This document shows positions 2,813 to 31,658 of a stretch of 32,000 bases of DNA, in pieces. The notes beneath the pieces were generated by a model. The model was not told the origin of the DNA. It was given only the letters and a program-made list of their open reading frames with translations, and searched no databases. Within the stretch, counting starts at the first letter, position 1; every line of letters begins with the position of its first letter. This DNA is from Methylorubrum extorquens (GTDB lineage: Bacteria; Pseudomonadota; Alphaproteobacteria; Rhizobiales; Beijerinckiaceae), in the NCBI GenBank assembly GCA_900234795.1, contig LT962688.1, positions 5,640,001 through 5,672,000 on the forward strand, written 5' to 3'. Both the position numbers and the translations under genes were made by a program.

Positions 2813-2881
2813 GACACTGAGACGAGCCGGAGATCCACCGTACCCACGATGTCGCGCGGCCGATACCCGAGACGAGACACG

Positions 2882-12354: not shown

Positions 12355-12585
12355 CCAGGCCTTCAAACATGGCTTCTGGAATGGCCGCTCTTGTCCCGCA
12401 AGCTGCCACTGCACGGAATGTTCAAGCGGGAGACACAAGATCCTGATGTCGTGACCGCCGCACAAAGGTGTGTTTCAGCGTGCAACTTTGACCCCTTGAG
12501 GCGGGGGATCGGCGTCCAATTCTGACCCCCTAACCTCGTTCTCGCAGACTGCCCTCCGGTGCGGCCGGAAGGGTGGTGCAGGGGG

Positions 12586-15085: not shown

Positions 15086-16105
15086 TCACAGAGGTCGGAC
15101 AGGCAAGAGCTTGCCGCGCAGCAGCAGGCCCAAAGTCCTCAGAGCGATCCAGCCGATGATCAGGTTGGCCGTGACGAATAGCGGAACTGCGAGGGACGCG
15201 CTCGGCCCTTCCAAGCCGCGTTCCGTCAATTGCAACGCGGCGAGCGGAAGGGCCGAGACGCCGAACGTGTAGGCCCAGGCCGCTGGTGAGAACGGCTGCT
15301 GGCGCAACCATGGCACCAGCCGAACCATGACCAAAGCATGCAGCAGGGCGTAGCCGAAGAGGATCTGCGCAAGCCGGTCGGGCGGCCCGTCCGTGACCGC
15401 CAGGTAGGCGACGCAGGCCACCGCGGGCGGAGCCAAGTGAAGCCCGAGCGAGGCGCGAAGCGGCACGGGCAGGGTCTGGAGGATCAGCCTGTGAATGACG
15501 ACCGACTCCAACGTGAGCCATGAGAGGAGGCCGGCGCCGAAGAAGAGCAGACCGACCTCCTTCATGCCGAAGGCGGCGCAGGTGATGGCCGCCACGAATC
15601 CCCCGCCGACAGTGGGCATGTAGAGGATCGGCGTCGTCGCCTCGAAGGCGCGGTCGCCCATCCAAAGGCCGCCCACGCCCCAGACGGCGAAGAGGGTCGC
15701 CCCAGCAAGCCCTGCCAAAGCCATCACCCAGGCGACGTCCGGCCAGTGCGGCGCAAGGCCAACGCTGGCGATCATCGTGGCGACGGGCGCCAAAGAGGCG
15801 AAGAACGAGGACGTCGGGTCACGCGCCTCGAAGAGTACCGTCTCCCGGTCGTTCAGCCACCGAGAGGCATAGAGGGCCAGCCATGCCGCCCAGACTGCCA
15901 CGCCGAGGATGGAGAGCGCCTCGCCTATCCAGGCGGGCGCAAGCCCTAGGCGCGCGGCCGCGCGCCAGCCGTTTCCTAAGCCGCACAACCCCAGGACCAT
16001 CCCGAAGAAGGTGGCCGGGACCCTGGTCCGTCGAAGCCAAGTGAATTCACGCCAAGGTTTGACGGAGTCTTCTCGCTCCCCGGCCGGGCTCGCAACGTCA
16101 GGCAC
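15086..16105 (-). CDS. TehA/SLAC1-family (tellurite-resistance / dicarboxylate transporter family) membrane protein
   Basis: About 10 TM helices. The N-terminal FFGMVLGLCGLGNGWR block is typical of the TDT family. The GTG start at 16105 lies one nt after the mocR stop. Confidence 0.75.
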   Translation of the reverse strand: MPDVASPAGEREDSVKPWREFTWLRRTRVPATFFGMVLGLCGLGNGWRAAARLGLAPAWIGEALSILGVAVWAAWLALYASRWLNDRETVLFEARDPTSSFFASLAPVATMIASVGLAPHWPDVAWVMALAGLAGATLFAVWGVGGLWMGDRAFEATTPILYMPTVGGGFVAAITCAAFGMKEVGLLFFGAGLLSWLTLESVVIHRLILQTLPVPLRASLGLHLAPPAVACVAYLAVTDGPPDRLAQILFGYALLHALVMVRLVPWLRQQPFSPAAWAYTFGVSALPLAALQLTERGLEGPSASLAVPLFVTANLIIGWIALRTLGLLLRGKLLPVRPL

Positions 16106-16106
16106 G

Positions 16107-17498
16107 TCAGACGACCGTGGAGATCGCGCCAGGCGGATGCGCCAGGAGCGTCGCGAGCAGGCTCAAGCCATACCGCAAGGTCTCGGCATCCGGCGCCGCG
16201 CCCAAGGAAACGCGAATGGCCTCGGGTGCCGGTCCCAACGCGAAGGCGTCGCTCAGGATGACCGACAGCCCGAGCTGACGCGCGTGCGCCCCGAACTCGC
16301 CGCGACGCCACGGTTCGGGAAGCCGGAGCCAGAGGTGGTGCCCGCAGGAATGGGCCTGCACGTCGAGACCCTGCAAGGTCTCGCGCGCGACGGCCTGCCG
16401 GCGGCCGTTCTCCTGGCGGATGGCCGCGACGACCACGTCGAGCTCGCCCTCGCCGATCCATTGCGAGGCGAGCGCGGCTGCGAGCGGCGAGGCCATCATG
16501 TTGATGGCCCGCAGCTCGGCCGCGAGCCGCACCGCCTCGTTCGTCCCCGGCACGGCGACGTAGGCGATGCGCAGACCTGGGCTGACGCACTTAGACAGCG
16601 TCGCGATGTGCCACGTGATGTCCCCGGCCATGGCGGCGATGGGAGCCGGAGCGTCGGGCGGCAGCGCGCCGTAGGCGTCGTCCTCGATGATCGCGACGCC
16701 GTGCGAGCGTGCGACTTCGGCGATCCGCTCGCGGCGCGCCGTCGGCAGCGTCGCGGTCGTCGGGTTGTCCAGCGTCGGCACCAGGTACAAGGCTCGCGGC
16801 CGCTCGGCCTTGCAGCACTCTAGGAGCGCGTCCGGATCAAGCCCGTCCGCGTCGCAGGCGACCGGAACGAGGCGAACGCCGCGGCGCTCGGCGGCCATAC
16901 GCAGGCCGGGATAGGTCAAAGCCGGGACGCAGAGCGCATCCCCCGGCTTGAGGATGGCGGCGAGCACGGCTGCGAGCACGACCTGGGCGCCGCCTCCCAC
17001 AAGGGCGCGGTGCACCGGAAGAGGCCCGAGCCGCTGGCCGAGCCACTGCGCCGCCGCAGCGCGGTCGGCCTTGTTCCCGGCGCTGTCCTGGTACTGCATG
17101 CGATCGAGGAAGCCCGGCGAACCGGCAAGCCGCGATAAGCCTGTTTGCATACGCTCGGCCAGACGCGCCGCGACCGGCTGTGGGGGCATGTTCATGCTGA
17201 AGTCGACGCTTCCGGACGGGTCTGGCCTACGCATCTCAGCAGGCGAAGGCGTGGGTCCGCGAACGAAGCTGCCCCTACCGGCGGTGGCATTGATCAAGCC
17301 CGTCCGTCGCGCCTCGTTGAAGGCGCGCGTGACCGTGGTGAGGTCGACGTTGAGGTGCTTGGCCAGGGTGCGCTGCGGCGGCAGGCGCATGCCCGGCGGC
17401 AGCCGACCGGCACGAATGTCCTCGGCCAGCGCCTTGACGATGGCCAGGTACTTCGGGCCTGCGTCGCCGGTGATTGTAGGGCTCCAAGATTCCATCAT
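16107..17498 (-). CDS. MocR-type regulator (GntR wHTH fused to class-I aminotransferase fold), paralog 1
   Basis: The wHTH is YLAIVKALAEDIRAGRLPPGMRLPPQRTLAKHLNVDLTTVTRAFNEARRTGLINATAGRGSFV. The aminotransferase-like domain carries the PLP-lysine block ATLSKCVSPGLRIAY. The start is set at the MMESW doublet, by alignment with paralog 2. Confidence 0.85.
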   Translation of the reverse strand: MMESWSPTITGDAGPKYLAIVKALAEDIRAGRLPPGMRLPPQRTLAKHLNVDLTTVTRAFNEARRTGLINATAGRGSFVRGPTPSPAEMRRPDPSGSVDFSMNMPPQPVAARLAERMQTGLSRLAGSPGFLDRMQYQDSAGNKADRAAAAQWLGQRLGPLPVHRALVGGGAQVVLAAVLAAILKPGDALCVPALTYPGLRMAAERRGVRLVPVACDADGLDPDALLECCKAERPRALYLVPTLDNPTTATLPTARRERIAEVARSHGVAIIEDDAYGALPPDAPAPIAAMAGDITWHIATLSKCVSPGLRIAYVAVPGTNEAVRLAAELRAINMMASPLAAALASQWIGEGELDVVVAAIRQENGRRQAVARETLQGLDVQAHSCGHHLWLRLPEPWRRGEFGAHARQLGLSVILSDAFALGPAPEAIRVSLGAAPDAETLRYGLSLLATLLAHPPGAISTVV

Positions 17499-17519
17499 TG
17501 ACCCCCGCGCCAGTTTTAA

Positions 17520-17531
17520 TGTATGCATACA
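17520..17531. promoter_or_regulatory. perfect 12-bp palindrome TGTATGCATACA upstream of mocR paralog 1
   Basis: Read directly from the sequence. It lies 22 nt upstream of the 17498 start codon. The same core recurs at 20687-20696. Confidence 0.55.
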
Positions 17532-17603
17532 CATATCGTACAGGCAAGGCGCGACGTAGCTTCGGCCGGGAAGACGACGCTGAAGCAGTCGGTTTTGGCC
17601 AGG

Positions 17604-17630
17604 AATGTATGGATATTTAGGCCATACATT
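17604..17630. promoter_or_regulatory. inverted repeat AATGTATGG-N9-CCATACATT
   Basis: 9-bp perfect arms in the mocR1/DUF983 divergent intergenic region. Same half-site as the other TGTATG elements. Confidence 0.55.
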
Positions 17631-17688
17631 CGGGGCGCGCAAGGCGGCCTCCATGCCGCGGGTGGCGAGCAATTCAGGAATGGGAACG

Positions 17689-18197: not shown

Positions 18198-18814
18198 ATG
18201 CTCCCCCATTCTGACGTGCTCGAGGCCTCTCTCCAGAAGTTGCGTGAGGACGGCCGCTACCGAGTGTTCATAGCGCTTGAGCGGAATGTCGGCACGTTTC
18301 CGATAGCTGTCTGGAGGCATCGGACCGCAGCCGCCGGCCGGTCACTGTCTGGTGCAGCAACGATGACCTTGGGATGGGACACAGCCCCGAGGTCCTAGGC
18401 GCCATGCACGAGGCCTTCGACCGCTACGGCGCCGGTGCGGGTGGCACCCGCAACATCTCCTGCACGGCCTACGAGCACGTGCTGCTGGAGCGCGACCTGG
18501 CCGACTTGCACGGGAAGGAGGCCGCCCTCCTGTTCACCTCGGGCTACATCTCGAACCTCGCAGCGCTGAGCGTGTTCGGCCAAGTGCTGCCGGACAGCAT
18601 GATCCTGTCGGACGCCGGCAACCACAACTCGATGATCGAGGGCATCCGCCGCGCGGGAACCGAGAAGGCGATCTTCCCGCACAACGACGCCGCCGCGCTC
18701 GATCGGCTGCTGTCCCGGTACGAGCCCGATCGGCCGAAGATCGTGGCTTTCGAGAGCGTCTACAGCATGGACGGAGGCCTGGCGCCTATCGCCGAGATGT
18801 CCATCGCGCGCTGA
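18198..18814 (+). pseudogene. hemA: 5-aminolevulinate synthase-like (alpha-oxoamine synthase) remnant, frameshifted and C-terminally truncated
   Basis: Frame 0 reads ..LREDGRYRVFIALERNVGTFPIAVWRH. It continues in another frame as VTVWCSNDDLGMGHSPEVLGAMHEAFDRYGAGAGGTRNIS..LHGKEAALLFTSGYISN..NHNSMIEGIRR..FESVYSMDGGLAPIAE. It then stops before the DEVHAVG / PLP-lysine half of the family. Confidence 0.75.
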
Positions 18815-19014: not shown

Positions 19015-20409
19015 TCAAATATAGGTCGAGGCGAGTGCCGGCGAGCCTTCGAGGGCGTGGGCGAGCACTTCCAGGCCGTGCGTGATCTGCTGCCGGGTCG
19101 AGGGGCCGCCGAGGCAGAGGCGCGCAGCCTCCGGCGGGGTCCCGGCCACGCAGAAGGGATCGCTGCCGACGACACCGAGCCCAGCCGACCGGCCCTGGCT
19201 AGCGAAGGCCGAGCGCGTCCAGCCCTCCGGCAGCGTGATCCAGACGTGGAAGCCATGCGGATCGGCGGTGTAGGTCCCGGCCGGAAGCAGCGAGGTCACA
19301 ATGCGCTGGCGCGCGGCCGACTCCTCGCGGACGAACTGGACGATGGCGTCCGCCGTGCCGTCCATAATCCAGCGTGTCGTCAGGGCCGTCGAGATCGGCG
19401 AGGCCATGACGGTCGCGGCCCGCAGCGCACCCGCGAGCGGTAGGGCGGACCGGGCGCTCGGGGCGACCAGGAAGGCAAGGCGAAGGCCGGCGCCCAGGCA
19501 CTTGGCCAACCCTGCCACGTAGTAGGTGACCTCGGGCGCGAGCTCGGCGAAGCTCGGCGGCGGTGCCGGGCAGATGCGCGCGTAGGCATCGTCCTCGATG
19601 ATGGTGACTGCGTAGCGCCGCGCCACTGCGATGATGGCTTCCCGCCGCGTGCGGGACAGGGTCGCGGTGGTCGGGTTCTGCAACAGCGGGTTCAGGTAGA
19701 TCGCCTTCGGCGCGACCTTGGTGCAGGCGGCCGCGAAGGCGTCGGGGTCGACCCCGTGGCGGTCCATCGGCAGATCGACGAGGCGCAGCCCCAGATGGGC
19801 GGCGAGCGCGCGGATGCCGGGATAGGTGATGCGCTCGGCGCAGATCGCGTCACCCGGCCGGGCAATCTGGCCGAGCACGCTGAACAGGGCGCTGTGGGCG
19901 CCGGGACAGATCAGCAAGCGCTCCCGCGTCGTCTCGATCCCTCGGCCCTTCAGCCACCGCAGCGCCGCCTCCTTGTCGTCGTCGGTGCCACCGAAGCCCT
20001 GGTAACGGAGAAGGTTGGCAAGGTCGCCGGAGAGTTCGGCGAAGGAGGCCTGCATGCGCGCCCGCAGGGCCGGCGCGTCGGGCTCCGGAGGGAGGTTCAT
20101 GGTGAAGTCGGCCGGCCCGACTTGTGGCACGCCGGCGGCAGCCCCTGCACGGGCAGAGCGAGCTGGGTCGACCACGAAAGTTCCTTGGCCGACACGGCCC
20201 TCAATCAGACCGCGCTTATGCGCCTCGACATAGCCGCGGGAGACCGTCGTGAAGTTGAGATCGAGCGCCTCGGCGAGGGCGCGCTGGGTCGGCAGGCGCG
20301 TTCCAGGCATCAAGCGCCCCGTCCGGATGTCTTCCGCCAGGGCCTCCGCGATGGCCAGGTAGTGCGGCTTGCCCCAGCGCTTCAGGTCCGGCGTCCAGGC
20401 CCCGGCCAT
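19015..20409 (-). CDS. MocR-type regulator (GntR wHTH plus aminotransferase fold), paralog 2, divergent from the nit cluster
   Basis: HYLAIAEALAEDIRTGRLMPGTRLPTQRALAEALDLNFTTVSRGYVEAHKRGLIEGRVGQGTFV, with the PLP-lysine block AGLAKCLGAGLRLAF. It is colinear with paralog 1 along its whole length. Start ATG 20409 (MAGAWTPDL) was chosen by alignment; 20454 is possible. Confidence 0.85.
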   Translation of the reverse strand: MAGAWTPDLKRWGKPHYLAIAEALAEDIRTGRLMPGTRLPTQRALAEALDLNFTTVSRGYVEAHKRGLIEGRVGQGTFVVDPARSARAGAAAGVPQVGPADFTMNLPPEPDAPALRARMQASFAELSGDLANLLRYQGFGGTDDDKEAALRWLKGRGIETTRERLLICPGAHSALFSVLGQIARPGDAICAERITYPGIRALAAHLGLRLVDLPMDRHGVDPDAFAAACTKVAPKAIYLNPLLQNPTTATLSRTRREAIIAVARRYAVTIIEDDAYARICPAPPPSFAELAPEVTYYVAGLAKCLGAGLRLAFLVAPSARSALPLAGALRAATVMASPISTALTTRWIMDGTADAIVQFVREESAARQRIVTSLLPAGTYTADPHGFHVWITLPEGWTRSAFASQGRSAGLGVVGSDPFCVAGTPPEAARLCLGGPSTRQQITHGLEVLAHALEGSPALASTYI

Positions 20410-20494
20410 GACATCCTGAGGGCTCGTCGGCCCTGCTCGCTTCGCCGCCCTCATCTGTTCCGAGCCTGCACCATCAACACACGATCAAATTTCG

Positions 20495-20562
20495 ATTGTA
20501 TGGCTAGCAAGCGTTATACCGCAACAACGGTTCGAAGCCGCTGTTCAATTTATCCATACAAT
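20495..20562. promoter_or_regulatory. ATTGTATGG ... CCATACAAT inverted half-sites (50-nt spacer)
   Basis: 9-bp perfect arms at 20495-20503 and 20554-20562 in the mocR2/nit intergenic region. Confidence 0.45.
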
Positions 20563-20683
20563 GCCATCAATCGTTGAGCCTCGAACGCGCATCTATTGAT
20601 CACCGAACGCGCAGGGTGTGCCGTAAGAATTGGCGCCCCGAAGTTTTGTACGCAGCATTGAAATCCAACAAATTGATCGCATA

Positions 20684-20696
20684 ATTGTATGCATAC
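20684..20696. promoter_or_regulatory. ATTGTATGCATAC element (palindromic core GTATGCATAC)
   Basis: Same core as 17520-17531. It lies about 40 nt upstream of the -24 element. Confidence 0.5.
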
Positions 20697-20736
20697 TACT
20701 TCAGCGTATTGATTGGCGCATTGATCGCCGAGGTTC

Positions 20737-20751
20737 TGGCACACCGCTTGC
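20737..20751 (+). promoter_or_regulatory. sigma54 (RpoN) -24/-12 promoter TGGCAC-N5-TTGC
   Basis: tctGGcacaccgcttGCca has exact GG-N10-GC spacing and exact TGGCAC and TTGC blocks. It sits 65 nt upstream of the first nit-cluster ATG, which has a strong AAGGAG RBS. Confidence 0.65.
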
Positions 20752-20815
20752 CATGATGGTCCGGTGACCGTTCGCAGCCCCGCCTGCCGCGGTCTCATCC
20801 TTCAAGGAGAGAGCA

Positions 20816-21298
20816 ATGCCTGCCGTGAACCGCGAACCCCACAAGAAGGGCGACTTCCTGGTCGACTACGAGGAGAAGGTCTTCGAGGACGTGAAGGCGG
20901 AGCCGGGCCAGAAGGCGCTCGTCACCTTTCACACGGTCGCGTTCGAAGGCTCCATCGGCCTCGTGAACCTGCTCCAGGCCACCCGCTTGCAGCGCAAGGG
21001 CTTCGACACCTCCATCCTGCTTTACGGTCCTGGCATCACACTCGGCGTCCAACGCGGTTTCCCGCGTCTTGGCGACGAGGCCTTCCCTGGCCACCTCAAC
21101 TTCAACAACCAGCTTGAGAAGTTCATGGCCGAGGGCGGCAAGGTCTATGCCTGCCGCTTCTCGACCCAGGCCCTCTACGGCCACGGCGAGGCGGCCTTCA
21201 TCGAGGGCATCCGCATGATCAACCCCCTCGACGTCCTCGACTGCATCCTCCTGCACAAGCGCGACAACGCGGTGATCATCGACACCTGGACCGTCTGA
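20816..21298 (+). CDS. MSMEG_0572 / Sll0783-family protein (first gene of Nit1C-type cluster)
   Basis: 160 aa at the first position of the conserved cluster. I recognise the sequence as the nitrogen-starvation-response family (..[45 protein letters not shown]..). The RBS is aaggagagagcaATG. Confidence 0.7.
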
Positions 21299-21381
21299 GC
21301 GGGCCGTCGGGTCCGTCGACCGGGACGTCGCATCCGGCGGCCGCACGCGACGCGGCCGCCGTCACAGCCGGAGGATCATCC

Positions 21382-22431
21382 ATGTCAGAGAACCGGATCG
21401 TGCGAGCCGCCGCCGTCCAAATCGCGCCGGACCTCGACCGGCCGGACGGCACCCTGGAGCGCGTGCTCAACGCCATCGACGAAGCCGCCGCCAAGGGCGC
21501 CCGCTTCATGGTCTTCCCCGAGACCTTCGTCCCCTACTACCCGTACTTCTCCTTCGTGCTGCCACCGGCCCTGCAGGGCTCGGAGCACCTGCGCCTCTAC
21601 GAGCGCGCGGTGGCGGTGCCAGGCCCCGTCACTCAAGCCGTCTCGGCCGCAGCCCGCCGCCACGGCGCCGTGGTGGTGCTCGGCGTGAACGAGCGCGACC
21701 ACGGCTCGCTCTACAACACGCAGCTGATTTTCGATGCGGACGGCAGCCTGGCGCTGAAGCGTCGCAAGATCACCCCGACCTACCACGAGCGCATGATCTG
21801 GGGTCAGGGCGACGGCGCCGGCCTCGCCGTCGTGGAGACCGCGGTCGGCCGGGTCGGCGCGCTCGCCTGCTGGGAGCACTACAACCCGCTTGCCCGCTAC
21901 GCGCTCATGGCGCGCCACGAGGAGATCCACGCGGCCCAGTTTCCGGGCTCGCTCGTCGGTCAGATCTTTGCCGACCAAATGGAGGTGACCATCCGCCACC
22001 ACGCTCTGGAGGCGGCCTGCTTCGTGGTCAACGCCACCGGCTGGCTCACCGACGAGCAGGTGGCGCAGGTCTGCCCGGACGAGCGACTGCGCGGCGCCTG
22101 CCGCGGCGGCAACTGCACCGCCATCATCTCGCCTGAGGGCAAGCACCTCGCGGACCCGCTCGGACCCGGCGAGGGCATCCTGATCGCCGACATGGACCTC
22201 GCGCTCGTGACCAAGCGCAAGCGGATGATGGACTCGGTCGGCCACTACGCCCGGCCCGAGCTCCTCAGCCTCCTCCACGACGACCGTCCGGCCTCGTTCG
22301 TGCACCAGCCGATCCGTTCCCAGACCGTTTCCCGGAGCCTCGACCATGAGCAGCAGCCCGCTTCCGACGAGCCTTCCCCTCGATCCCGCCGGCCGTGGCG
22401 GGCCTGGTCGGGATGCCGACGGAGCGCCTGA
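21382..22431 (+). CDS. nitrilase (Nit6803 / Nit1C-type, carbon-nitrogen hydrolase superfamily)
   Basis: The E-K-C catalytic triad is intact: [17 protein letters not shown] and [11 protein letters not shown]. The 3' end overlaps the next ORF, so the exact stop or the downstream start is uncertain. Confidence 0.9.
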
Positions 22432-23518
22432 TCAACGCGTTGCAGTCCTACGGCGTTAGGCTCGCCGATGCTCGCTCTGGGGCGCCGAGCCGCCGCGGCG
22501 GGGCGGGTCCCTCCGACCACAAAGCGATGACCATCGCGGGCCGCACCGTGATGGTGCCGGTCCACACCGAGACCGCCTTCGAGTCGCCGTTCCTGGTGCG
22601 CCGCCCGGACGCGAACGGCGTCTCGGTGATCGAGCACGACGGCGTGGTGATCGGGCAGGCTACCTTCCCGGGCAAGCCGCGCTTCTACGCGCTCTCGACC
22701 TTCGACGGCGTGCCCTACTCGAAGATCGCCGTGCTGCACGGACGGGACGTGCTCGCCACCACCGTGCTGCAGACCTGCATCCGCTATGCCAGCCGCACGA
22801 AGACCTGCCAGTTCTGCTCCATCGGCCAGTCGCTCGCGGCCGGCCGCACGGTGGCCCGCAAGACCCCGGAGCAACTCGCCGAGGTCGCTCGCGCGGCGGT
22901 GCTGCTCGACGACGTCAAGCATATATGGTGATGACGACCGGCACGCCGAACGCCACCGACCGGGGCGCTGCCGTGCTCTGCGAGAGCGCCTTCGCGGTCA
23001 AGGCGGCCGTTGCCCTGCCGATCCAGGCCCAGTGCGAGCCGCCCGACGACGACCGCTGGTTCGAGCGAATGAAGGCGTCCGGCATCGACGCCCTCGGCAT
23101 GCACCTGGAGGCCGTCACTCCGGAGGTCCGTACCCGCATCATGCCGGGCAAGGCGAGCGTGCCACTGGAGCGATACTACGAGGCCTTCGAGGCGGCCGTG
23201 CCGGTCTTCGGCCGTGGCCAGGTTTCGACCTACATCCTGGCCGGGCTCGGCGACGCTCCCGAGGCCATCCTGGAGATGGCCGAGCGGCTCGTCGGGATGG
23301 GGGTCTATCCCTTCGTGGTGCCGTTCGTGCCGATCTCGGGCACGCCGCTGGAGAGCCACCCGGCCCCCGGCCCTGACTTCATGCACGCCATCCTCAAGCC
23401 GCTCGCGGACATGCTGGCGGGCGCGGATCTGCGCTCGACCGACATCAAGGCCGGCTGCGGACGCTGCGGCGCCTGCTCGGCCCTCTCCACCTACGAGCGC
23501 GCAGGGGCGACGGCATGA
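22395..23518 (+). CDS. radical SAM protein (MSMEG_0568 family), interrupted by a 2-nt frameshift (ORFs 22395..22931 and 22925..23518)
   Basis: The N-terminal ORF carries RRGGAGPSD and the cluster motif [14 protein letters not shown]. The C-terminal ORF continues [35 protein letters not shown].. and ends with CGRCGAC. The two are colinear if AT is removed from catATATATgg at 22921-22926. Confidence 0.8.
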
Positions 23519-24060
23519 TCCTCGAACCCGTCCAGCCGTTCCGGCCGAGCCATTTCCGCGTGAAGTTCGCGGTCGCGCCGTGGGAGCGGCGCGCCTGCGC
23601 GGCGCTGCGCCGCCAGGTGTTCTGTAGCGAGCAGGGCATCTTCGCGGACGACGACCGCGACGCCATCGACGCGCACGCCATTCCCATCTGCGCCCTCTCG
23701 ACGCTTGGTGGCGAGGCCGACGCCGTCGTCGGCACGGTGCGCATCCACGAGGTCGCGGAGCGGCCTGGCGAGTGGTGGGGCTCGCGGCTTGCGGTCGCCA
23801 GGGCATTCCGCGGCATGGCCGCGCTCGGGGCCGGCCTTATCCAGGTCGCGGTCTCGTCCGCCCATGCCCGGGGCTGCACCCGCTTCCTCGCCCATGTGCA
23901 GGAACGCAACGTGCCGCTGTTCCAAGCCCTGCACTGGGCAAGCCTTGACGCCATCGACCTGCACGGGCGCCCGCACCACCTGATGCAGGCGGATCTTTCC
24001 GCCTACCCGCCGATGCTCGACCCCGAGCACGGGCTTGTCACCCTCGCCAAGGCCGCGTGA
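23515..24060 (+). CDS. GNAT N-acetyltransferase (MSMEG_0567 / Sll0786 family)
   Basis: GNAT core ..GTVRIHEV..WWGSRLAVARAFRGMAALGAGLIQVAVSSAHARGCTRFLAHVQ. ATGA overlap with the radical SAM gene. Confidence 0.8.
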   Translation: MILEPVQPFRPSHFRVKFAVAPWERRACAALRRQVFCSEQGIFADDDRDAIDAHAIPICALSTLGGEADAVVGTVRIHEVAERPGEWWGSRLAVARAFRGMAALGAGLIQVAVSSAHARGCTRFLAHVQERNVPLFQALHWASLDAIDLHGRPHHLMQADLSAYPPMLDPEHGLVTLAKAA

Positions 24061-25055
24061 TGACGGCCCCCTTCGATATCCAGGCCCTGGCCCGTCAGAT
24101 CCAGGACGCGCGCGGCGTCGCGCACAAGCGCGACATCGACGCGGTGGTGGCACGGCTGGGGCTGGGCGGCCGGCACGCCGCGGTGCCGGTCGGCGACGAC
24201 TGTGCCGCCATTCCCGACGGCGACGGCCATCTGCTCCTCGCCATCGAGGGCTTTCTCGACAGCTTCGTCGCCGCCGACCCGTACTTCGCCGGGTATTGCG
24301 GGATCATGGTCAATCTGAGCGACGTGGCCGCCATGGGCGGGCGTCCGCTCGCGGTGGTCGACGCCCTGTGGAGCCGAGACGCCGGGGCAGCGGACCCGAT
24401 CCTGGCAGGCCTGGCCGACGCGGCCGCGCTCTACGGCGTGCCGGTGGTGGGCGGCCACACCAACACGCGCGCCGATGCCGGCAACCTCGCGGTCGCCGTG
24501 CTCGGGCGGGCGGGCCCGCGCCTGCTGACGAGCTTCGACGCAGCGCCGGCCGACGACCTCGTCGCCGCCATCGACCTGCGCGGGCGGTTCCGCGATCCGC
24601 ACCCCTACTGGGACGCCTCCACCGGCGCTCCGGGCGAGCGGCTGCGCGGCGACCTCTCACTGCTGCCGGGGCTCGCCGAGGACGGCCTGGCCTGTGCGGC
24701 CAAGGACATCAGCATGGCAGGCGTCGTCGGCACAGCCCTGATGCTGCTCGAATGCTCGAACATCGGCGGCGTCATCGACCTCGACGCGATCCCGAGGCCG
24801 GACCACGTCCCACTCGCACGCTGGCTGACCGCCTTCCCAAGCTTTGGCTACCTGCTGAGCGTGCGCCCCGACCGCACGCCGGCCGTGCTCGCGCGCTTCG
24901 CGGAGCGCGGCATCGCGGCCGCCGGGATCGGGCGCCTCGATAAGAGCCGAGTCGCCCGGGTCCGCGGCGCTACGGGCGACGAGGCCGTGGTCTGGGACTT
25001 TGCGGCCAACCCCCTCATTGGCTGCGGCCGGGCCTGTTCCGGAGCCGCATCATGA
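24057..25055 (+). CDS. AIR-synthase-related (PurM superfamily) protein, sll0787 family
   Basis: PurM-like N-domain VPVGDDCAAIPDG..LLLAIEGF, then MVNLSDVAAMGGRPLAVVDAL and GVPVVGGHTN. Start at GTG 24057 or ATG 24060, overlapping the GNAT stop. Confidence 0.8.
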   Translation: MMTAPFDIQALARQIQDARGVAHKRDIDAVVARLGLGGRHAAVPVGDDCAAIPDGDGHLLLAIEGFLDSFVAADPYFAGYCGIMVNLSDVAAMGGRPLAVVDALWSRDAGAADPILAGLADAAALYGVPVVGGHTNTRADAGNLAVAVLGRAGPRLLTSFDAAPADDLVAAIDLRGRFRDPHPYWDASTGAPGERLRGDLSLLPGLAEDGLACAAKDISMAGVVGTALMLLECSNIGGVIDLDAIPRPDHVPLARWLTAFPSFGYLLSVRPDRTPAVLARFAERGIAAAGIGRLDKSRVARVRGATGDEAVVWDFAANPLIGCGRACSGAAS

Positions 25056-26227
25056 CGGCCCTGCGCATCGCCATCCTGACCCACTCCACCAATCCGCGCG
25101 GCGGCGTCGCCCACTGCCTTGCCCTGGCCGAGGCGCTCTGGGCCCTCGGGCACGATGCGGTGGTGCACGCGCCCGATCCGTCCGGCCGCGGCTTCTTCCG
25201 GGATGCGGCCTGCCCCACCGTGTCGGTGGCGGCCCAGGCGGTCAAAGGTGCGACGGTCGACCTCGTGCGGGCCCGCATCAACGACTACCTGCGCCACTTC
25301 TCGACGCCGGCCGCCTGCGACTTCGACGTCTTCCACGCCCATGACGGGATTGGCGGCAACGCGCTCGCAACCCTCAAGCACCGGCGCCTGATCCCGGGCT
25401 TCGTGCGCACGGTCCACCACGTCGACAGCTTCTCCGACCCGCTGCTCGCGGAGTGGCAGGACCGCTCGATCCGAGAGGCCACGCGCCTGCTCTGCGTCAG
25501 CCGAACCTGGGCAGACTGGATCCGGGACGACCTCGGTGCCGAGGCCAATGTCGTCGGGAATGGGGTGGACCTCTCGGTCTATCGCACCGAACCGACCGAG
25601 GCGGACACGGCCGTGCGGGAGCGTTGGGGCCTTGGGCCGGGGCCGGTGATCCTCAGCGTGGGTGGCTTTGAGGAGCGCAAGAACACGCTGGGCATAATCG
25701 AGGCCTTCGCCCGTCTGCGCGCGCGGCATCCTCAGGCGCAGCTCGTCCTTACCGGCGGCGCCTCGCTCCTCGATCATGCCGCCTATCGCGCCGCCTGCCG
25801 CGCGGCCCTGGTGGCGCACGGACTTGCCGTCGGCCTTGGCGAGGCCGTGGTTGAGACGGGCCCCGTCCCGCAGGCCAACATGCCCGCGCTCTACCGGGTC
25901 GCCAACGTCCTGGCCTTCCCCTCCTGGAAAGAGGGGTTCGGCCTTTGCGTGCTGGAGGCGATGGCCTGCGGCACGCCCGCCATCGTCTCACGGCAACCAC
26001 CGTTCACCGAGTACCTCGCGGAGACGGATGCCCTCTTCGTCGATCCGGCCGATCCCGACGCCATCGCGGACGCGATGGCGGAAGCCCTGGCGCCGGACAC
26101 CCGCGCGCGACTGCGACCGGCCGGTTTGGCCCGGTCCGCCGCCCATTCCTGGCGCGCCTGCGCGGAGCGCCACCTCGACGCCTACGCGACCTGCGCCCGC
26201 ACCCGACAGGAACCGATCCATGCCTGA
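25052..26227 (+). CDS. GT4-family glycosyltransferase (MSMEG_0565 family)
   Basis: N-terminus is RIAILTHSTNPRGGVAHCLALAEAL. The E-x7-E motif is FPSWKEGFGLCVLEAMACGTP. ATGA overlap with the upstream gene. Confidence 0.85.
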   Translation: MTALRIAILTHSTNPRGGVAHCLALAEALWALGHDAVVHAPDPSGRGFFRDAACPTVSVAAQAVKGATVDLVRARINDYLRHFSTPAACDFDVFHAHDGIGGNALATLKHRRLIPGFVRTVHHVDSFSDPLLAEWQDRSIREATRLLCVSRTWADWIRDDLGAEANVVGNGVDLSVYRTEPTEADTAVRERWGLGPGPVILSVGGFEERKNTLGIIEAFARLRARHPQAQLVLTGGASLLDHAAYRAACRAALVAHGLAVGLGEAVVETGPVPQANMPALYRVANVLAFPSWKEGFGLCVLEAMACGTPAIVSRQPPFTEYLAETDALFVDPADPDAIADAMAEALAPDTRARLRPAGLARSAAHSWRACAERHLDAYATCARTRQEPIHA

Positions 26228-26501
26228 GATGCGCTTTCACGTCCGCTGGCCCGATGGCCGCCGTGAGGCCTGCTACTCGCCCTCGCTCGTCGTGAAGGAC
26301 TTCTTCACGCCGGGAGAGAGCTACCCCCTGGACGACTTCGTGGAGAAGTCTCGCACTGCCTTGAACATCGCGAGCGAGCGGGTGCGCGAGAAGTACGGCT
26401 TCGCGTGCTCATCGGCCATGGACCAGCTCGCCCGCATCGAGGCCGCCGCGAAGCGGCAGGAGCCCGGTGGCCAAGTCACCATCGAGTCCTTCGAGCCCTG
26501 A
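26220..26501 (+). CDS. MSMEG_0570-family small protein
   Basis: 93 aa from the internal ATG of ORF 25776..26501 (MPEMRFHVRWPDGRREACYSPSLVVKDFF..). It overlaps the GT stop by 8 nt. Size and position match the small conserved cluster member. Confidence 0.65.
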   Translation: MPEMRFHVRWPDGRREACYSPSLVVKDFFTPGESYPLDDFVEKSRTALNIASERVREKYGFACSSAMDQLARIEAAAKRQEPGGQVTIESFEP

Positions 26502-26539
26502 GCCAACGCCCTCTCCCTGACCCTCATGGAGCCAGAGCC

Positions 26540-27808
26540 ATGACCTCCACCCCCCGCCATGTCCCTGTCGTCATCGTCGGCGGCGGCCAAGCCGGCCTCT
26601 CGGTCAGCTACCACCTCAAGCAGCGCGGCATCGAGCATCTCGTGTTCGAGAAGAAGACCGCCGCACATACCTGGGAAACCCAGCGCTGGGACACCTTCTG
26701 CCTCGTTACGCCGAACTGGCAGTGCGACCTGCCAGGCCACCGCTATGACGGTCCGGACCCGGACGGGTTCATGAAGAAGGACGAGATCGTCACCTATCTC
26801 AAGGCCTTCGTCGCCAAGGTGGACCCGCCGATCCGCGAGGGCGTGGCGGTCACCCGCGTCGAACGGCGCGAGGACGGCATCTTCTCGGTCCAAACCTCGG
26901 CAGGCGACTACTCCGCGGACGAGGTCGTCGTCGCCTCGGGCGGCTATCACACCCCGATCATCCCGCGCATGGCCGAGAAGCTGCCGGGCTCGATTACCCA
27001 GATCCACTCGAACCAGTACCGCAACCCGGCCCAGTTGCCTGAGGGCGAGGTGCTGGTGGTGGGCTCCGGCCAGTCCGGCGCGCAGATCGCCGAGGACCTG
27101 CACCTCGCCGGACGCAAGGTGCACCTGGCGGTGGGCGACGCGCCCCGCTGCGCCCGCTTCTATCGCGGTCGCGACGTCGTCACCTGGCTCGCCGACATGG
27201 GCTACTACGAGATGACTGTCGACAACCATCCGCTGCGCGACGGCGTCCGCGACAACACCAACCACTACGTGACCGGCCGCGACGGTGGTCGCGACATCGA
27301 CCTGCGCCGCTTCGCCACCGAGGGCATGCGGCTCTACGGCCTGATGGAGGACTACCGGGACGGCAACCTGCGTTTCCGCGACGACCTCAAGCGCTCGCTG
27401 GACCAGGCCGACCGGACCTACAACGGCATCAATGCGGCTATCGACAAGTACATCGCCGAGAAGGGCATCGAAGCCCCGGCGCAGGAGCACTACACGCCGG
27501 TCTGGGAGCCGGGCGAGCCGGTCACCAGCCTGCCGCTGGAAGGCTCCGGCATCACCAGCGTCGTCTGGTGCATCGGCTTTACGCCGGATTTCCGCTGGCT
27601 CGATGCCTCGGTGTTCAACGGCGCGGGCAACCCGAAGCACAAGCGCGGCGTGACAAACGAGGACGGCGTCTACTTCATTGGCCTGCCCTGGCTGAACACC
27701 TGGGGTTCGGGCCGCTTCGGGGCGGTCGGTCGCGACGCCGAGCACGTCGTGCAAGCGATCCAGAAGCGCCTCGGTGCCGAGCGGCCCGCCCTCAGGTTCG
27801 CGGTCTGA
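26540..27808 (+). CDS. flavin-dependent oxidoreductase (MSMEG_0569 family, two dinucleotide-binding sites)
   Basis: VVIVGGGQAGLS (FAD site) and VLVVGSGQSGAQIAEDL (NAD(P) site). ATG 26540 has GGAG 9 nt upstream. Confidence 0.85.
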   Translation: MTSTPRHVPVVIVGGGQAGLSVSYHLKQRGIEHLVFEKKTAAHTWETQRWDTFCLVTPNWQCDLPGHRYDGPDPDGFMKKDEIVTYLKAFVAKVDPPIREGVAVTRVERREDGIFSVQTSAGDYSADEVVVASGGYHTPIIPRMAEKLPGSITQIHSNQYRNPAQLPEGEVLVVGSGQSGAQIAEDLHLAGRKVHLAVGDAPRCARFYRGRDVVTWLADMGYYEMTVDNHPLRDGVRDNTNHYVTGRDGGRDIDLRRFATEGMRLYGLMEDYRDGNLRFRDDLKRSLDQADRTYNGINAAIDKYIAEKGIEAPAQEHYTPVWEPGEPVTSLPLEGSGITSVVWCIGFTPDFRWLDASVFNGAGNPKHKRGVTNEDGVYFIGLPWLNTWGSGRFGAVGRDAEHVVQAIQKRLGAERPALRFAV

Positions 27809-28010
27809 CCCGAGAGCCCGTCGGTCCTTTGGTGCCACCCGTTAGGGGCTGGCGAATACGCTTCGTGGACCCCGAGGCGGGCCAATCCGATCTGTCGTCC
27901 AGGCGCATCATGTGCCTGTGCCGTTCCTGCAACAAGACGATCCTCAAAGCACTGCCTGAGCATTATCGATTAGACTCTAAGATTTTGCGGTGCAGAATAT
28001 AAGTATTGAA

Positions 28011-28147: not shown

Positions 28148-29083
28148 ATGATGCTGAAGAACTTCGCGGCCGCGGCGGGAGCGTTCGCCGCAGTCACCCT
28201 GGGCGCGACCGCCGCCTACGCCCAGGCAACCACGATCCCCGGCGAGCAGGTCGGCCTCGCAGTCGGTGCCCCTCTGCCCGAGGGCATCTACGCCATCGAC
28301 ACCTTCATCTACCGCCGGAACGACACCCGGTTCTCGACCGACACGGCGATCAACGTGCCGGTCCTAGTCTGGTCGACCGGCTACAAATTCCTCGGTGCCA
28401 ACATACAGCCCTTGCTAGCCCAGCCGACTGTGTTCGGGTTCCCCAACAACCCGGCGGGCGTGCCCAACCGCGACTTCACCGTCAACGTCGGCACCCTTGT
28501 CGGATCGATCTTCGCCTGGGATCTCGGTAATGGCTTCGGCGTCAGCTACCTCGCGGCTGTCCACTTGAACGACCTCGACGCCGGCCGCGGCCTGCCGCAG
28601 TTCTCCTCCAACACCTACCGCCAGGGCTTCGCGGCCAGCTACACCGCCGATGGCTGGAACCTAACGGCCAACCTGACCCACAACTTCTACGACTCCCCCG
28701 GCCGGTTCGAGGGTGCCGTCGGACGGGCGATTGGTCCGCTCTACCTCGCGGACGCCCTCCTGCTCGACCTCACGGCGACCAAGAAGTTCGGCAAGTTCGA
28801 GATCGGCGCGGTGGCATACGGGGTGACGGATCTGCCGCTCGGCGGTCGCGACTTCGCGCGCGCCTCCGCGCAGGGCTACACCCGGGCCGGACGCTTCGCG
28901 GTCGGCGGCTTGATCGGCTACGACTTCGGGCCGTTCACCGCGCAGCTCATGGTGGCCCGCGACGTCGCGGTTCGGACCCGCGGCACGGAGTCGACGGACG
29001 GCTTCATCCGCCTCATCGCGCCGCTCTACACGGCTCCGAAGGCCGCCGCGGTCGAGCCCGTCGCTCTGATGCGAAAGTATTGA
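28148..29083 (+). CDS. putative outer-membrane beta-barrel protein
   Basis: Signal peptide MMLKNFAAAAGAFAAVTLGATAAYAQ. Alternating aromatic/Gly-rich strands follow (..GFGVSYLAAVHL.., ..GFAASYTADGWNLTANLTHNFY.., ..FEIGAVAYGVTD..). Good RBS aagaagggga. The function is not assignable. Confidence 0.6.
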   Translation: MMLKNFAAAAGAFAAVTLGATAAYAQATTIPGEQVGLAVGAPLPEGIYAIDTFIYRRNDTRFSTDTAINVPVLVWSTGYKFLGANIQPLLAQPTVFGFPNNPAGVPNRDFTVNVGTLVGSIFAWDLGNGFGVSYLAAVHLNDLDAGRGLPQFSSNTYRQGFAASYTADGWNLTANLTHNFYDSPGRFEGAVGRAIGPLYLADALLLDLTATKKFGKFEIGAVAYGVTDLPLGGRDFARASAQGYTRAGRFAVGGLIGYDFGPFTAQLMVARDVAVRTRGTESTDGFIRLIAPLYTAPKAAAVEPVALMRKY

Positions 29084-29246
29084 AGAGCGTTCCCGCGGCC
29101 CTGGCCCCCTCTTCGAGGTGATGCCCCGGGCGCGGTCGAGATCGAAGTGAACTCCTTCCCAAGGATCCCGCTTCGACAGGGGCCGGGTGGCCAAGTCTCG
29201 ACAGCTACCACCACCCGGTCTCGCCCTTTCCCGAAGGAGAAGGCCG

Positions 29247-30085
29247 TTGGGTCTGCACACGAGACTCGAAGGGGTCGACACGCCCCTGACGGATGCCTGC
29301 CGCCATGTCCTGGGCATGCCGCATCTCTGCCCGAGCGGCCTCTCCGAGAACTGGCTCTGGAAAGAGCTTGGGCACCGCCACTGGGGTTTGATCGCCAAGG
29401 CGTTCGGCAGGGCCGAGGCCGGGTTCGGGCCTACGGGCGAGCCGCCCGTCTACGCGGCGTTCCGGAGGATCGCCCTGCAGGGCGGCGACCTCGGCGCCGT
29501 TTGCGAGAACGACGCGTTGGACGTGCGCTCGACGGTCACGTACCTTTCGGAGACCTGGGTCGTCAGCCGGCACGTCGCGACGTGCCGGGACCGGCTGGTC
29601 GCGGACGTGGAGATGACCTCCGTGTTCGGGAGGCGCCAGACCGAGGGCGCGAACCGTTCCATAGCCCGGGTAAGGATCGAGGGTCGGCAGCGCACCATAC
29701 CCGCTTTCGGGGCCATGCCCGCCCAGCCCGCTAGCACCGAGCACGCGTCTTCGGGGGCTATCACAGCGCTGGACGAGCGCGAGCTCGGAACCTTGGTCGT
29801 CGATCCATGTCCCCACCTAACTTTAACGGGGCCGGGCTCCTGTACTTCAGCAGCTTCGTCGCCGCCGTGGATCGGGCCGAGTGGCACTTCCTCGGGAAGC
29901 GATCAGGCAACTACGCCACCCGTGTGCGTCGAGCTTTGTTCCACGCGAACGTCGATATGGGTGACCGTCTCTCAGTGCGGGTGCTGGCTTCGAGCGACGA
30001 GGCTAATTGCTGCCATCGTGCGATTTTGTCGACGGTGGATGGCAAGCTACTGGCGGAGATAGTAAGGCACCGCACCAAACTATAA
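29247..30085 (+). pseudogene. LnmK / Pnap_2097-like double hot-dog fold protein, frame broken at a C4 run
   Basis: The TTG 29247 start has AAGGAG 7 nt upstream. The N-terminal half reads GMPHLCPSGLSENWLWKELGHRHWGLIAKAF. The second hot-dog half (PNFNGAGLLYFSSFVAAVDRAEWHF..) is in another frame (ORF 29807..30085). Adding one C to CCCC at 29811-29814 joins them. Confidence 0.55.
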
Positions 30086-30352: not shown

Positions 30353-31658
30353 AATGGGCGGCAGCTCAATCCAGAGCGTTCGACGCTTTCGGGTGCCTGC
30401 GTTCTCTACGTGCTCGTGCGGCACTTGATGGGGTCAGCTGGGTGCAAAGCGGCTCGGTTGAAAGCGCAGTCGGCGCAAGGCCGCATGCTACAGAATCGGC
30501 GCCATCTTCTGCTCCCTTCCTCGGGCGTCGCTCCCGCTCGGGAGCTCGGTTCGGCCTCCTGTCCGGTGATGTCAGCCGCTACGCAGGTCGGAACTCGGTG
30601 CCCTGCCGCAGCATCGCGTGCATGATGATCGCTAGCCGGCGCGCGAGAGCGATGCGGGCCTTGCGCATCGTAGAGCGCTTCGCGATGGCCAGAGCCCAAG
30701 CCTTCAGCTTCAGGGGCTGCCTGCAGCGCGTCAGCATCACGTTGGCGGCTTCGTACAGCAGCGTTCTGACCCGCCGGTCGCCGCACTTCGAGATGCTACC
30801 GGTGTAGTCGACCTCGCCCGATTGGTAGCGTCGCGGAACAAGGCCAAGATACGGACCGACGTCGCGGGAGCGCCTGAAGCGCTCAGGATCATCGACGGCT
30901 GCCGTGAAAGCGAGCGCGGTGAGTTGACCGACGCCCGGGATCGTCATCAACCGCCGGCAGGCATCTGAGGCTCGGACCATCCGCTTGATATCTGCATCGA
31001 TGGCGGCGACAGCTGCCAGCACGGCAGCTCGTGCTCCGATCAGGCCGCGCATGGCGGCGGACAGTCCAGCGATCCCCTCGCTCGAACGCAGAGCCTGCTC
31101 GATGAACGCAGGGCTGAGCGCCCGCGGTAGCCGCACCCCGAACACGACGGCAAGACCGCGGATCTGGTTCTCCAGCGTGACCCGCTGGCCGACCAGCTTC
31201 TTGCGCGCGATGATCAACGACCTCACGGCGTGTGCCGGCAGCGACTTCACGTGCACCGGCTTGAAGAAGCCTGTTCGTGCCAGATGAGCCAGACCGCGCG
31301 CATCGTTCCGGTCGGTCTTGTGCGTCGTAAGCGACTTCAAGGCTTGGTAAGCCTGCCGGCTCTCGACGCAGACGACCGGCACACCATGGTCGGCCAAGCC
31401 GTGGAACAGCATTGGAGCCATCCGGCCTGTCTCGAACACAACCCGACGGCAGGCAGGCGCCTTCGCGAGTTCCTGCGCGATGTCGGCAGGCGTAGAGGCC
31501 ACCTTCGCCTGATGGGTAACTACTCCGTCGCGGTCGACCACGCAGACGTGCGTCTCCTCCATCGAGACATCTAGGCCAGCGAAATACTCCATAATCAGCC
31601 TCCTCTTCCGGCAGCGGAGCCGATCCTATCGACTTCCGCAGAAGAGCTGCCGCCCATT
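30353..31658 (-). mobile_element. IS110-family (IS1111-like architecture) insertion sequence
   Basis: Perfect 15-bp inverted repeats AATGGGCGGCAGCTC (30353-30367) and GAGCTGCCGCCCATT (31644-31658) bracket the transposase gene. The 5' leader is 51 nt and the 3' non-coding region is 211 nt. These are minimum extents. Confidence 0.7.
30579..31592 (-). CDS. IS110-family DEDD transposase
   Basis: The N-terminal RuvC-like DEDD blocks are AGLDVS, VVFETG and HKTDRNDARGLA. The C-terminal domain reads LMTIPGVGQLTALAFTAAVDDPERFRRSRDVGPYLGLVPRRYQSGE..SKCGDRRVRTLLYEAA. RBS is ggaggctgattATG. Confidence 0.9.
   Translation of the reverse strand: MEYFAGLDVSMEETHVCVVDRDGVVTHQAKVASTPADIAQELAKAPACRRVVFETGRMAPMLFHGLADHGVPVVCVESRQAYQALKSLTTHKTDRNDARGLAHLARTGFFKPVHVKSLPAHAVRSLIIARKKLVGQRVTLENQIRGLAVVFGVRLPRALSPAFIEQALRSSEGIAGLSAAMRGLIGARAAVLAAVAAIDADIKRMVRASDACRRLMTIPGVGQLTALAFTAAVDDPERFRRSRDVGPYLGLVPRRYQSGEVDYTGSISKCGDRRVRTLLYEAANVMLTRCRQPLKLKAWALAIAKRSTMRKARIALARRLAIIMHAMLRQGTEFRPA

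Follow-up and report, generated by a model that had tools for sequence, protein, structure and literature searches.

Layout of the Nit1C cluster

We analysed 32,000 nucleotides (nt) of Methylorubrum extorquens DNA (contig LT962688.1, positions 5,640,001 to 5,672,000; hereafter the window), which carry eight genes of the conserved nitrilase cluster Nit1C between window positions 20816 and 27808. Judged from its sequence, this plus-strand locus is a genuine eight-gene variant of the Nit1C operon that contains a glycosyltransferase (GT) gene, in the order nitB-nitC-nitD-nitE-nitF-GT-nitG-nitH. The cluster type has already been known since 2005, and the locus studied here is an ordinary Methylobacterium copy of it. 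Its genes are listed below as they are read in the window, with protein lengths in amino acids (aa) and the scores of their NCBIfam models.

20816..21298, plus strand: nitB, MSMEG_0572/Sll0783 family, 160 aa (TIGR04044, 276.7 bits against a cut-off of 109.85, full length)
21382..22431, plus strand: nitC, Nit6803-family nitrilase (TIGR04048, 555.1 bits against a cut-off of 502.6)
22413..22931, plus strand: N-terminal half of the radical-SAM gene nitD as read (TIGR04043, profile positions 2-164, 243 bits, below the cut-off of 303.7)
22925..23518, plus strand: C-terminal half of the radical-SAM gene nitD as read (TIGR04043, profile positions 164-354, 343 bits)
23515..24060, plus strand: nitE, GNAT of the MSMEG_0567/Sll0786 family (TIGR04045, 233.1 bits against a cut-off of 68.45)
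24060..25055, plus strand: nitF, AIR-synthase-like protein of the sll0787 family, PurM superfamily (TIGR04049, 438.5 bits against a cut-off of 321.3)
25052..26227, plus strand: GT4 glycosyltransferase, MSMEG_0565 family (TIGR04047, 474.3 bits against a cut-off of 259.85)
26220..26501, plus strand: nitG, MSMEG_0570 family, 93 aa (TIGR04042, 136.3 bits against a cut-off of 79.85)
26540..27808, plus strand: nitH, flavoprotein of the MSMEG_0569 family, 422 aa (TIGR04046, 685.1 bits against a cut-off of 498.35)

The open reading frames (ORFs) of 20816-27808 all lie on the plus strand, according to both the ORF listing and a translation of 20700-27900. Seven of the eight families reach their curated NCBIfam cut-offs, the exception being the radical-SAM gene as read, whose N-terminal half stays at 243 bits. 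An earlier note on this DNA had assigned the locus to Nit1C, and the profile scores, the gene order and the synteny described below uphold that assignment. The same note had called the eight-gene cluster complete, which does not hold for the sequence as read: the radical-SAM ORF is interrupted.

The tight packing described in that note is borne out. ATGA overlaps occur at 23515 and 25052, the nitE/nitF junction (noted as GTGATG at 24057) reads GCGTGATGACG at 24057-24060, and GT and nitG overlap by 8 nt at 26220 (ATGCCTGA). Stop and start codons overlap at five of the eight junctions; elsewhere, 83 nt separate nitB from nitC and 38 nt precede nitH. Close relatives start nitF at ATG 24060 (331 aa), with GTG 24057 as an alternative, and the true start of nitH is ATG 26540 (422 aa), not the GTG at 26405 of the ORF listing. 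Gene order and overlaps would fit one translationally coupled transcript. A scan of the cluster region returned no terminator-like site on the plus strand, and on the minus strand one match in the operon region, below the level of shuffled sequences (3.2). The hairpin of the 83-nt nitB-nitC spacer, at -42.5 kcal/mol, is not significant against shuffles (z = -0.40), and Rfam has no match within or adjoining the cluster.

Conservation of the cluster and known relatives

NitB is encoded by at least 590 species-level genomes. We mapped the window proteins onto the 80 best species-level loci holding a NitB relative, a set that spans Alpha-, Beta- and Gammaproteobacteria and Polyangiales. All seven core genes are found together in 69 of the 73 loci that could be evaluated, and they are colinear on one strand in 66 of the 73. 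The GT gene is an optional member, lying between nitF and nitG in 42 of the 69 complete clusters; it was described in 2005 as a lineage-specific insertion in Burkholderia and Rubrivivax (PMC1199592).

The nearest relatives among annotated records are the clusters of M. extorquens CM4 plasmid pCMU01 (MCHL_RS26290-26330; 89.3% DNA identity) and of the AM1 megaplasmid (89.7%). The CM4 region has nine genes in the same order, including a divergent MocR-type gene annotated as "PLP-dependent aminotransferase family protein", and the same sigma-54 element; RefSeq already names all eight cluster genes by the same families. In contrast to the window, the radical-SAM gene of CM4 is intact (367 aa), its nitrilase is 358 aa long, and other genes follow nitH.

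Further away, the nitABCDEFGH clusters of Pseudomonas pseudoalcaligenes (oleovorans) CECT5344 and P. fluorescens NCIMB 11764 have the same gene order for the seven core families; their nitrilase is likewise of the Nit6803 family, and their expression depends on sigma-54. They differ in that they lack a glycosyltransferase and encode their own sigma-54 activator of the Fis family, NitA, whereas the window has a MocR-family regulator, a GT4 gene between nitF and nitG, a Pnap_2097/LnmK-like gene downstream, and no activator within 32 kb. The gpr cluster of Mycobacterium smegmatis, MSMEG_0565-0572, is made of the eight families from which the NCBIfam models take their names, the GT included, and is induced by nitrogen starvation; its control is by GlnR instead of sigma-54, and its phenotype concerns peroxide resistance and the NADPH level. 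In Synechocystis PCC 6803, sll0783-sll0787 resembles the window in that our nitrilase matches Nit6803 (PDB 3WUY) and Sll0783 belongs to the NitB family, while the cyanobacterial cluster was described without a GT (PMC1199592). A related cyanobacterial cluster has the order nitHBCDEFG, with nitH first.

The interruption of nitD

In the window, nitD is split into two ORFs by a 2-bp insertion of AT at 22921-22922, which turns (AT)2 into (AT)3. The site changes from CATATG to CATATATG, and positions 22917-22925 read CATATATGG; in codons, the window has GTC AAG CAT ATA TGG TGA where CM4 and AM1 have GTC AAG CAC ATG GTG ATG. The N-terminal half thus ends with two added residues (IW) and a TGA at 22929-22931, which is overlapped by the ATG at 22925 of the C-terminal half (ATGGTGA). 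A second insertion lies in nitC, where an extra C at 22376 (C3 to C4) alters the tail of the nitrilase, leaving 349 aa instead of the 358 aa of its relatives. It touches only the non-conserved tail past profile position 300, and the catalytic domain is intact. Neither insertion was noticed in the earlier note.

Taken as given, the sequence reads as a true frameshift. On that view nitD would either be inactivated, as part of a cluster decaying in an island rich in insertion sequences (IS), or yield two polypeptides that reassemble after termination-reinitiation at ATGGTGA. The split is clean: it falls at profile position 164 and no residue is lost, with just IW gained. The new ATG overlaps the stop much as the operon's other coupled junctions do; against reinitiation, no Shine-Dalgarno sequence precedes 22925. 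IS21 and IS110 elements, the truncated aminotransferase fragment at 18374-18814 and the frameshifted LnmK-like gene all lie nearby.

Comparison with independent assemblies points the other way. An exact look-up of the GT protein found one NCBI genome, GCA_001423385.1, which shares 99.86% identity across 14.6 kb, together with numerous short-read contigs of the Logan collection. In every assembly found in this manner the radical-SAM gene is called intact, at 367 aa, and the nitrilase at 358 aa. Compared base by base, contigs L005-L009 equal the window over up to 10.2 kb, save for the AT at 22921-22922 and the C at 22376. Once the 2 bp are removed, NitD is identical to the L005 protein and scores 603 bits with TIGR04043. 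The AT insertion is absent from CM4, AM1, the contigs L003-L009 and the single metagenome match (L100); the C insertion is absent from L003-L009.

The same pattern recurs elsewhere in the window. Between 2595 and 12389 it shows almost no substitutions against contigs of the same lineage, and two further single-base insertions stand out against six to seven independent, otherwise near-identical contigs. One, T6 to T7 at 3119, frameshifts a PF03458 gene (209 aa in relatives); the other, G4 to G5 at 3713 and seen against the same contigs, breaks an M20 peptidase (453 aa in relatives). All the other assemblies have both genes unbroken. In all, about 20 kb compared with Logan contigs from many samples (L005-L009 and L013-L019) differ by four insertions (3119, 3713, 22376 and 22921), each in a short repeat inside a coding gene, and by nearly no substitutions (zero in most contigs).

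The broken allele itself leaves no trace. Neither half of NitD has a record among 153 billion called genes, an exact-pattern scan of genome contigs for either allele of the site gave 0 matches, and the frameshift allele has no second occurrence in public assemblies or metagenomes, the only metagenome match being intact. We tried and rejected a programmed frameshift or naturally split gene as the leading explanation, the allele being seen nowhere else.

Insertions confined to short repeats, free of substitutions and set against independent assemblies, are the signature of consensus errors, not of divergence; a true mutational history would be expected to bring substitutions as well. The unrecorded half-proteins, the empty contig scan and the intact metagenome match back the same view. 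We therefore regard the nitD break as quite probably an assembly artefact, the change in the nitC tail as most likely an assembly error, and the lineage's own Nit1C cluster as most likely intact; a real frameshift appears unlikely. Some points weigh on the side of the latter: the comparison is one between assemblies, which leaves a real mutation some probability; an inserted dinucleotide is unlike the classic homopolymer error; and the IS-rich surroundings (with IS21 at 12.5-14.3 kb and the transposase of an IS110 element at 30.6-31.6 kb) together with the frameshifted LnmK-like gene resemble decaying DNA. The sequence should not be taken for a natural nitD pseudogene before the reads have been checked.

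As a separate observation, a C is gained at 18062 and another lost at 18094 relative to L003 and L004. The two changes, in C-runs 32 nt apart, compensate each other and lie a little upstream of the aminotransferase fragment; contigs of the identical lineage do not reach this stretch.

Promoter and regulation

The region upstream of nitB and its divergent neighbour contain the following features.

20737..20751, plus strand: sigma-54-type -24/-12 promoter element, TGGCACaccgcTTGC (TGGCAC-N5-TTGC), 65 nt upstream of the nitB ATG
20455..20815, strand not assigned: control region; TTGATYG boxes start at four positions, 20482, 20673, 20709 and 20721 (core of ATTGATCGCAT), and are candidate MocR operators
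19015..20454, minus strand: MocR-family regulator with a GntR-type helix-turn-helix (Pfam GntR, residues 32-94) and an aminotransferase-fold domain (Aminotran_1_2, residues 142-462)

The sigma-54 element is the sole match in the window, where 0.09 are expected by chance, and it is kept in CM4 and AM1 within the best-conserved intergenic block. A strict TGGCAY-N5-TTGC occurs 50-130 nt upstream of nitB in 66 of the 80 loci, compared with only 6 matches in 3.03 million strand-bases elsewhere in those loci. The earlier note had a MocR neighbour in place of a dedicated sigma-54 activator; the sigma-54 promoter element itself is present here, and at the same position in those 66 loci. Podar et al. 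(2005) did not find conserved upstream sites (PMC1199592). The promoter scan gave one sigma-70-like site besides, at 20658-20685 and at chance level.

The MocR gene is no peculiarity either. In 59 of 77 loci the immediate upstream neighbour of nitB is a divergent homologue, and 10 more loci have one elsewhere; its identity to the window protein is 39-56% outside Methylobacteriaceae. The view that this copy differs from others in its context accordingly fails, the divergent MocR gene being present in CM4 as well and the sigma-54 promoter being retained. The best NCBIfam model of the window protein is of the EhuR type, at 434.8 bits below the cut-off of 480, so we do not file it as EhuR. We also considered the "MocR" of the Pseudomonas cyanide literature as a nit1C regulator and rejected it, as that protein regulates the cio/nit4 cluster instead.

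The candidate operators are strongly concentrated. Across 62 intergenic regions between MocR and nitB, TTGATYG has a density of 8.77 per kb; the remaining DNA of the loci has 0.25 per kb, a 35-fold difference. The boxes number a median of 3 copies per intergenic region and are often arranged as palindromes. In the window, two of the four boxes lie just upstream of the -24 element. We infer that MocR binds these boxes. The heptamers CGCACCA/TGGTGCG, possible NtrC half-sites, occur in 27 of the 62 intergenic regions; having no background control, they are not used as evidence.

Among the annotated ORFs of the 32-kb window none has a GAFTGA motif. Across the 80 loci, an ORF for a GAFTGA activator lies within 10 kb in only five, three of which are Polyangiales loci without MocR. 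Nitrogen limitation would then trigger transcription through sigma-54 and a general NtrC-type activator encoded outside the window, and the MocR protein would add pathway-specific control by binding the TTGATCG boxes and sensing a primary-amine intermediate through its PLP. Such dual control, with an NtrC-type activator on the sigma-54 promoter and MocR on the boxes, is consistent with the nitrogen-limitation control published for three other phyla or genera, among them control by GlnR in M. smegmatis (PMC6039565) and by NitA and sigma-54, with repression by ammonium, in Pseudomonas (PMC7815647, PMC11049912, PMC5939895). With the MocR neighbour and the sigma-54 promoter both occurring family-wide, the model is testable, and the effector of MocR offers a route to a pathway intermediate.

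The proteins of the cluster

NitB is highly conserved: the Methylobacterium protein shares 81-87% identity with its counterparts in Beta- or Gammaproteobacteria or Polyangiales, and conservation reaches at least 97% at 97 of 160 positions. C113, at the end of the third strand (109-113), is invariant in 80 of 80 sequences. Pfam DsrE matches weakly (E 0.13) and a sequence search of the PDB gave nothing useful. The AF2 model, of moderate confidence (pLDDT 70), matches DsrE/DsrF, TusBCD and YchN structures at E-values of 6e-6 to 5e-3, led in Foldseek by 3MC3 (6e-6), 2HY5_B (5.9e-5) and 1JX7 (8e-5). The model thus matches a DsrE-like fold, which in NitB would carry an invariant cysteine. The family had been assigned to YchN in 2005 (PMC1199592), and a remark of 2018 relates it to DsrE (PMC6039565).

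NitC aligns with the Nit6803 structure 3WUY at E 3e-148. The E-K-C triad that the earlier note read as intact is confirmed, E47, K129 and C163 being invariant across 77 homologues, along with E136.

NitD has seven conserved cysteines, six of them invariant and the seventh, C207, present in 77 of 78 sequences. The two motifs pointed out before are both there and invariant: C122, C132 and C135 of the SAM cluster (C-x9-C-x2-C; 78 of 78), and C348, C351 and C354 of the C-terminal CGRCGAC. A second Fe-S cluster is predicted on C207 together with C348, C351 and C354. Sequence searches of the PDB found no close solved relative, the best being RlmN (E 2e-3) and BioB (0.075), and the sole distant relative with a name is the LipS2 lipoyl synthase family (42 bits).

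NitE matches Pfam Acetyltransf_1 and, weakly, FeeM (E 4.5e-5). The NitF family profile finds ThiL in the PDB at 1.6e-22, followed by PurL, SelD and HypE at 6e-11, and NitF scores 224 bits with the methanogenesis marker 2 model. As a member of the PurM superfamily, NitF is presumably an ATP-dependent activator of an oxygen or an amide. An in-frame stop in the Brenneria homologue (L069) was considered as a selenocysteine codon and rejected: it is the natural TAA, which the alignment segment had overrun.

NitG is an orphan. Its AF2 model is confident (pLDDT 95.6) and a fold search of the PDB found no match (best E 0.59). Just 395 relatives exist among 1.84 billion representatives, nearly all free-standing. 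Of its two conserved cysteines, C63 occurs in all 60 sequences and C18 in 58 of 60. A few proteins carry NitG fused to the N-terminus of NitH, one over its full length (P0265, 536 aa) and three in part (P0288, P0304, P0377). Because such natural fusions exist, NitG and NitH may be suggested to work as a pair. NitH has two GxGxxG motifs, in keeping with its description as a two-site flavoprotein, and its closest solved structures are the bacterial class-B flavin monooxygenases 4USQ, 4USR and 4A9W.

Two observations on NitG stand apart. Apparent GT-NitG and NitF-NitG fusions (P0330, P0367, P0317) are only fragmentary and may have arisen from wrong gene calls where genes overlap. In Methylobacterium oryzae TC3-10 (L029) and Methylobacterium sp. 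E-065 (L031), otherwise complete clusters have no tblastn match to NitG, and nitH follows about 1.2 kb after the GT gene; nitG may have been lost there or have strongly diverged.

A possible pathway

In the literature, searched by the names of the cluster, of the families and of the enzyme combination, we found no paper that defines the Nit1C pathway or the natural substrate of its nitrilase, in line with what the earlier note had said of both. A 2021 paper calls the physiological role of NitC "unclear" (PMC7815647), and for a 2024 paper NitB and NitG are still proteins of unknown function (PMC11049912).

One reading is that the operon mainly scavenges nitrogen. NitC would free ammonium by hydrolysing nitriles that are taken up or arise spontaneously, for instance the cyanohydrin that cyanide forms with oxaloacetate, the other proteins being accessory to it through protection, cofactor supply or substrate capture. 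In Pseudomonas, growth on cyanide or aliphatic nitriles is lost in mutants of nitA, nitB and nitC (PMC5939895), and cyanide assimilation requires NitC (PMC7815647). Expression is induced by cyanide and by nitrogen limitation and repressed by ammonium. The conserved sigma-54 promoter and a nitrilase with 555 bits to the Nit6803 family and a full catalytic set fit this role here too. Its weakness is in the rest of the operon: a PurM-like ATP enzyme, a radical-SAM enzyme with seven conserved cysteines, a GNAT and often a GT4 are enzymes of an anabolic type, and partners that keep their colinear order beside the nitrilase at 66 of 73 loci, with 56-82% identity across classes, are hard to square with dispensable helpers. 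Nor does it agree with the in vitro preference of NitC for unnatural unsaturated nitriles (PMC7815647), or with M. smegmatis, where the whole cluster raises NADPH and peroxide resistance, a phenotype other than nitrile use (PMC6039565). We consider nitrogen scavenging a somewhat doubtful account of the operon.

Since the nitrilase is accompanied, in colinear and highly conserved form, by an enzyme that depends on ATP, a radical-SAM enzyme with two predicted Fe-S clusters, a GNAT and in many cases a GT, we favour a single multi-enzyme route. Tentatively, and with the odds still leaning a little against it, we propose that the enzymes act jointly on one small nitrogenous metabolite under nitrogen limitation, beyond bare nitrile hydrolysis. 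NitF would activate an amide or carbonyl oxygen with ATP; NitD would perform radical-SAM chemistry, aided by a second Fe-S cluster on C207 and C348/C351/C354; and NitB, with its DsrE fold and Cys113, could be a cysteine-based carrier. NitE would N-acylate an amine, NitG would partner the NADPH flavoprotein NitH, and NitC would convert a nitrile intermediate to a carboxylate and ammonium. In some lineages only, the GT would glycosylate the product. The earlier idea that the metabolite is a glycosylated one is weakened, as about 40% of otherwise complete clusters lack the GT.

A more speculative, and decidedly improbable, reading has Nit1C make a low-molecular-weight, sulfur-containing redox metabolite and recycle it with NADPH. 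It draws on the DsrE-like fold that NitB's model shows, on the predicted second Fe-S cluster in NitD, on a GT resembling MshA/BshA, on the GNAT and on the pairing of NitG with NitH. In this scheme NitB would carry a persulfide on Cys113 in the manner of DsrE; NitD, equipped with two Fe-S clusters and distantly similar to LipS2 and BioB, would insert sulfur by radical-SAM chemistry, with ATP-dependent activation by NitF. The product would be N-acylated by NitE, with the acyl group supplied by the Pnap_2097/LnmK-like protein, receive a sugar from the MshA/BshA-type GT4 in some lineages, and be kept reduced by the two-cysteine NitG with NitH, using NADPH. The nitrilase would process a nitrile precursor, and MocR would sense an amine intermediate. 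If true, it would parallel mycothiol and bacillithiol biosynthesis and account for the Mycobacterium and Synechocystis phenotypes that involve peroxide and NADPH.

Altogether, the combined account that we prefer (a Nit1C operon whose nitD break comes from assembly, with dual control and a joint route on a nitrogenous metabolite) has in our estimate a probability of about 0.65. Several things count against it. The literature searched contains no experimental demonstration of any step of the chemistry, and the published phenotypes fit simple assimilation of nitriles or cyanide by NitC alone (PMC5939895). No sigma-54 activator was found among the annotated ORFs of the window, and the role of NtrC is pure inference. 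The 80 loci, finally, are the best matches to a Methylobacterium NitB, and the sample leans to Proteobacteria.

Nit1C is a well-known conserved cluster, induced by nitrogen starvation in several phyla, needed on cyanide and linked to the NADPH balance. The question of its chemistry is genuine and twenty years old, and solving it would probably reveal new enzymology for its radical-SAM and PurM-like enzymes and for two orphan folds. The window copy adds no handle beyond those offered by hundreds of genomes; the genetically tractable M. extorquens strains AM1 and CM4 carry the same cluster. What the present analysis adds is small: the DsrE-like fold and invariant cysteine of NitB, the seven cysteines of NitD, the orphan fold of NitG and its fusions to NitH.

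Flanking genes

Two genes follow nitH.

28151..29083, plus strand: 310-aa signal-peptide protein, Methylobacterium-specific (start as in the L003 gene call; 8 of 80 loci)
29316..30085, plus strand: Pnap_2097/LnmK-like gene (TIGR04099), frameshifted near 29820

The first had been taken for an outer-membrane protein. It is a signal-peptide protein present in only 8 of the 80 loci and has no Pfam, NCBIfam or PDB match; its RefSeq homologues are called just "transporter". The LnmK-like gene is there as claimed, in a frameshifted form: positions 1-176 of TIGR04099 are found in the ORF 29187-30062 and positions 175-258 in the ORF 29807-30085, and relative to AM1, Leaf118 and M. aminovorans 1 bp is deleted near 29820. 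It is not peculiar to this copy, since 31 of 71 loci have a homologue downstream of nitH in the same orientation. Both it and the MocR neighbour commonly accompany Nit1C in Proteobacteria. Identity to the close relative L003 stops at 29622, inside the region of the LnmK-like gene.

On the other side of the MocR gene, a class I/II aminotransferase fragment of 146 aa (18374-18814, plus strand), also found in L004, lies between this gene and a second MocR-family paralogue (16107-17672, minus strand; EhuR-type model, 404 bits). The paralogue stands beside a SLAC1/TehA-type anion channel gene (15086-16162, minus strand). The region is flanked by an IS21-type pair at 12526-14273 (plus strand), made of a protein with a Mu-transposase C domain (istA) and an IstB ATPase, and by an IS110-family transposase at 30579-31592 (minus strand).

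Near the start of the window, a glycine riboswitch aptamer (RF00504; 66 bits, E 7e-12) lies at 1680-1769 on the plus strand, upstream of an ORF with a YkuD L,D-transpeptidase domain (1883-2812) and of the PF03458 "glycine transporter" gene at about 2849-3512.

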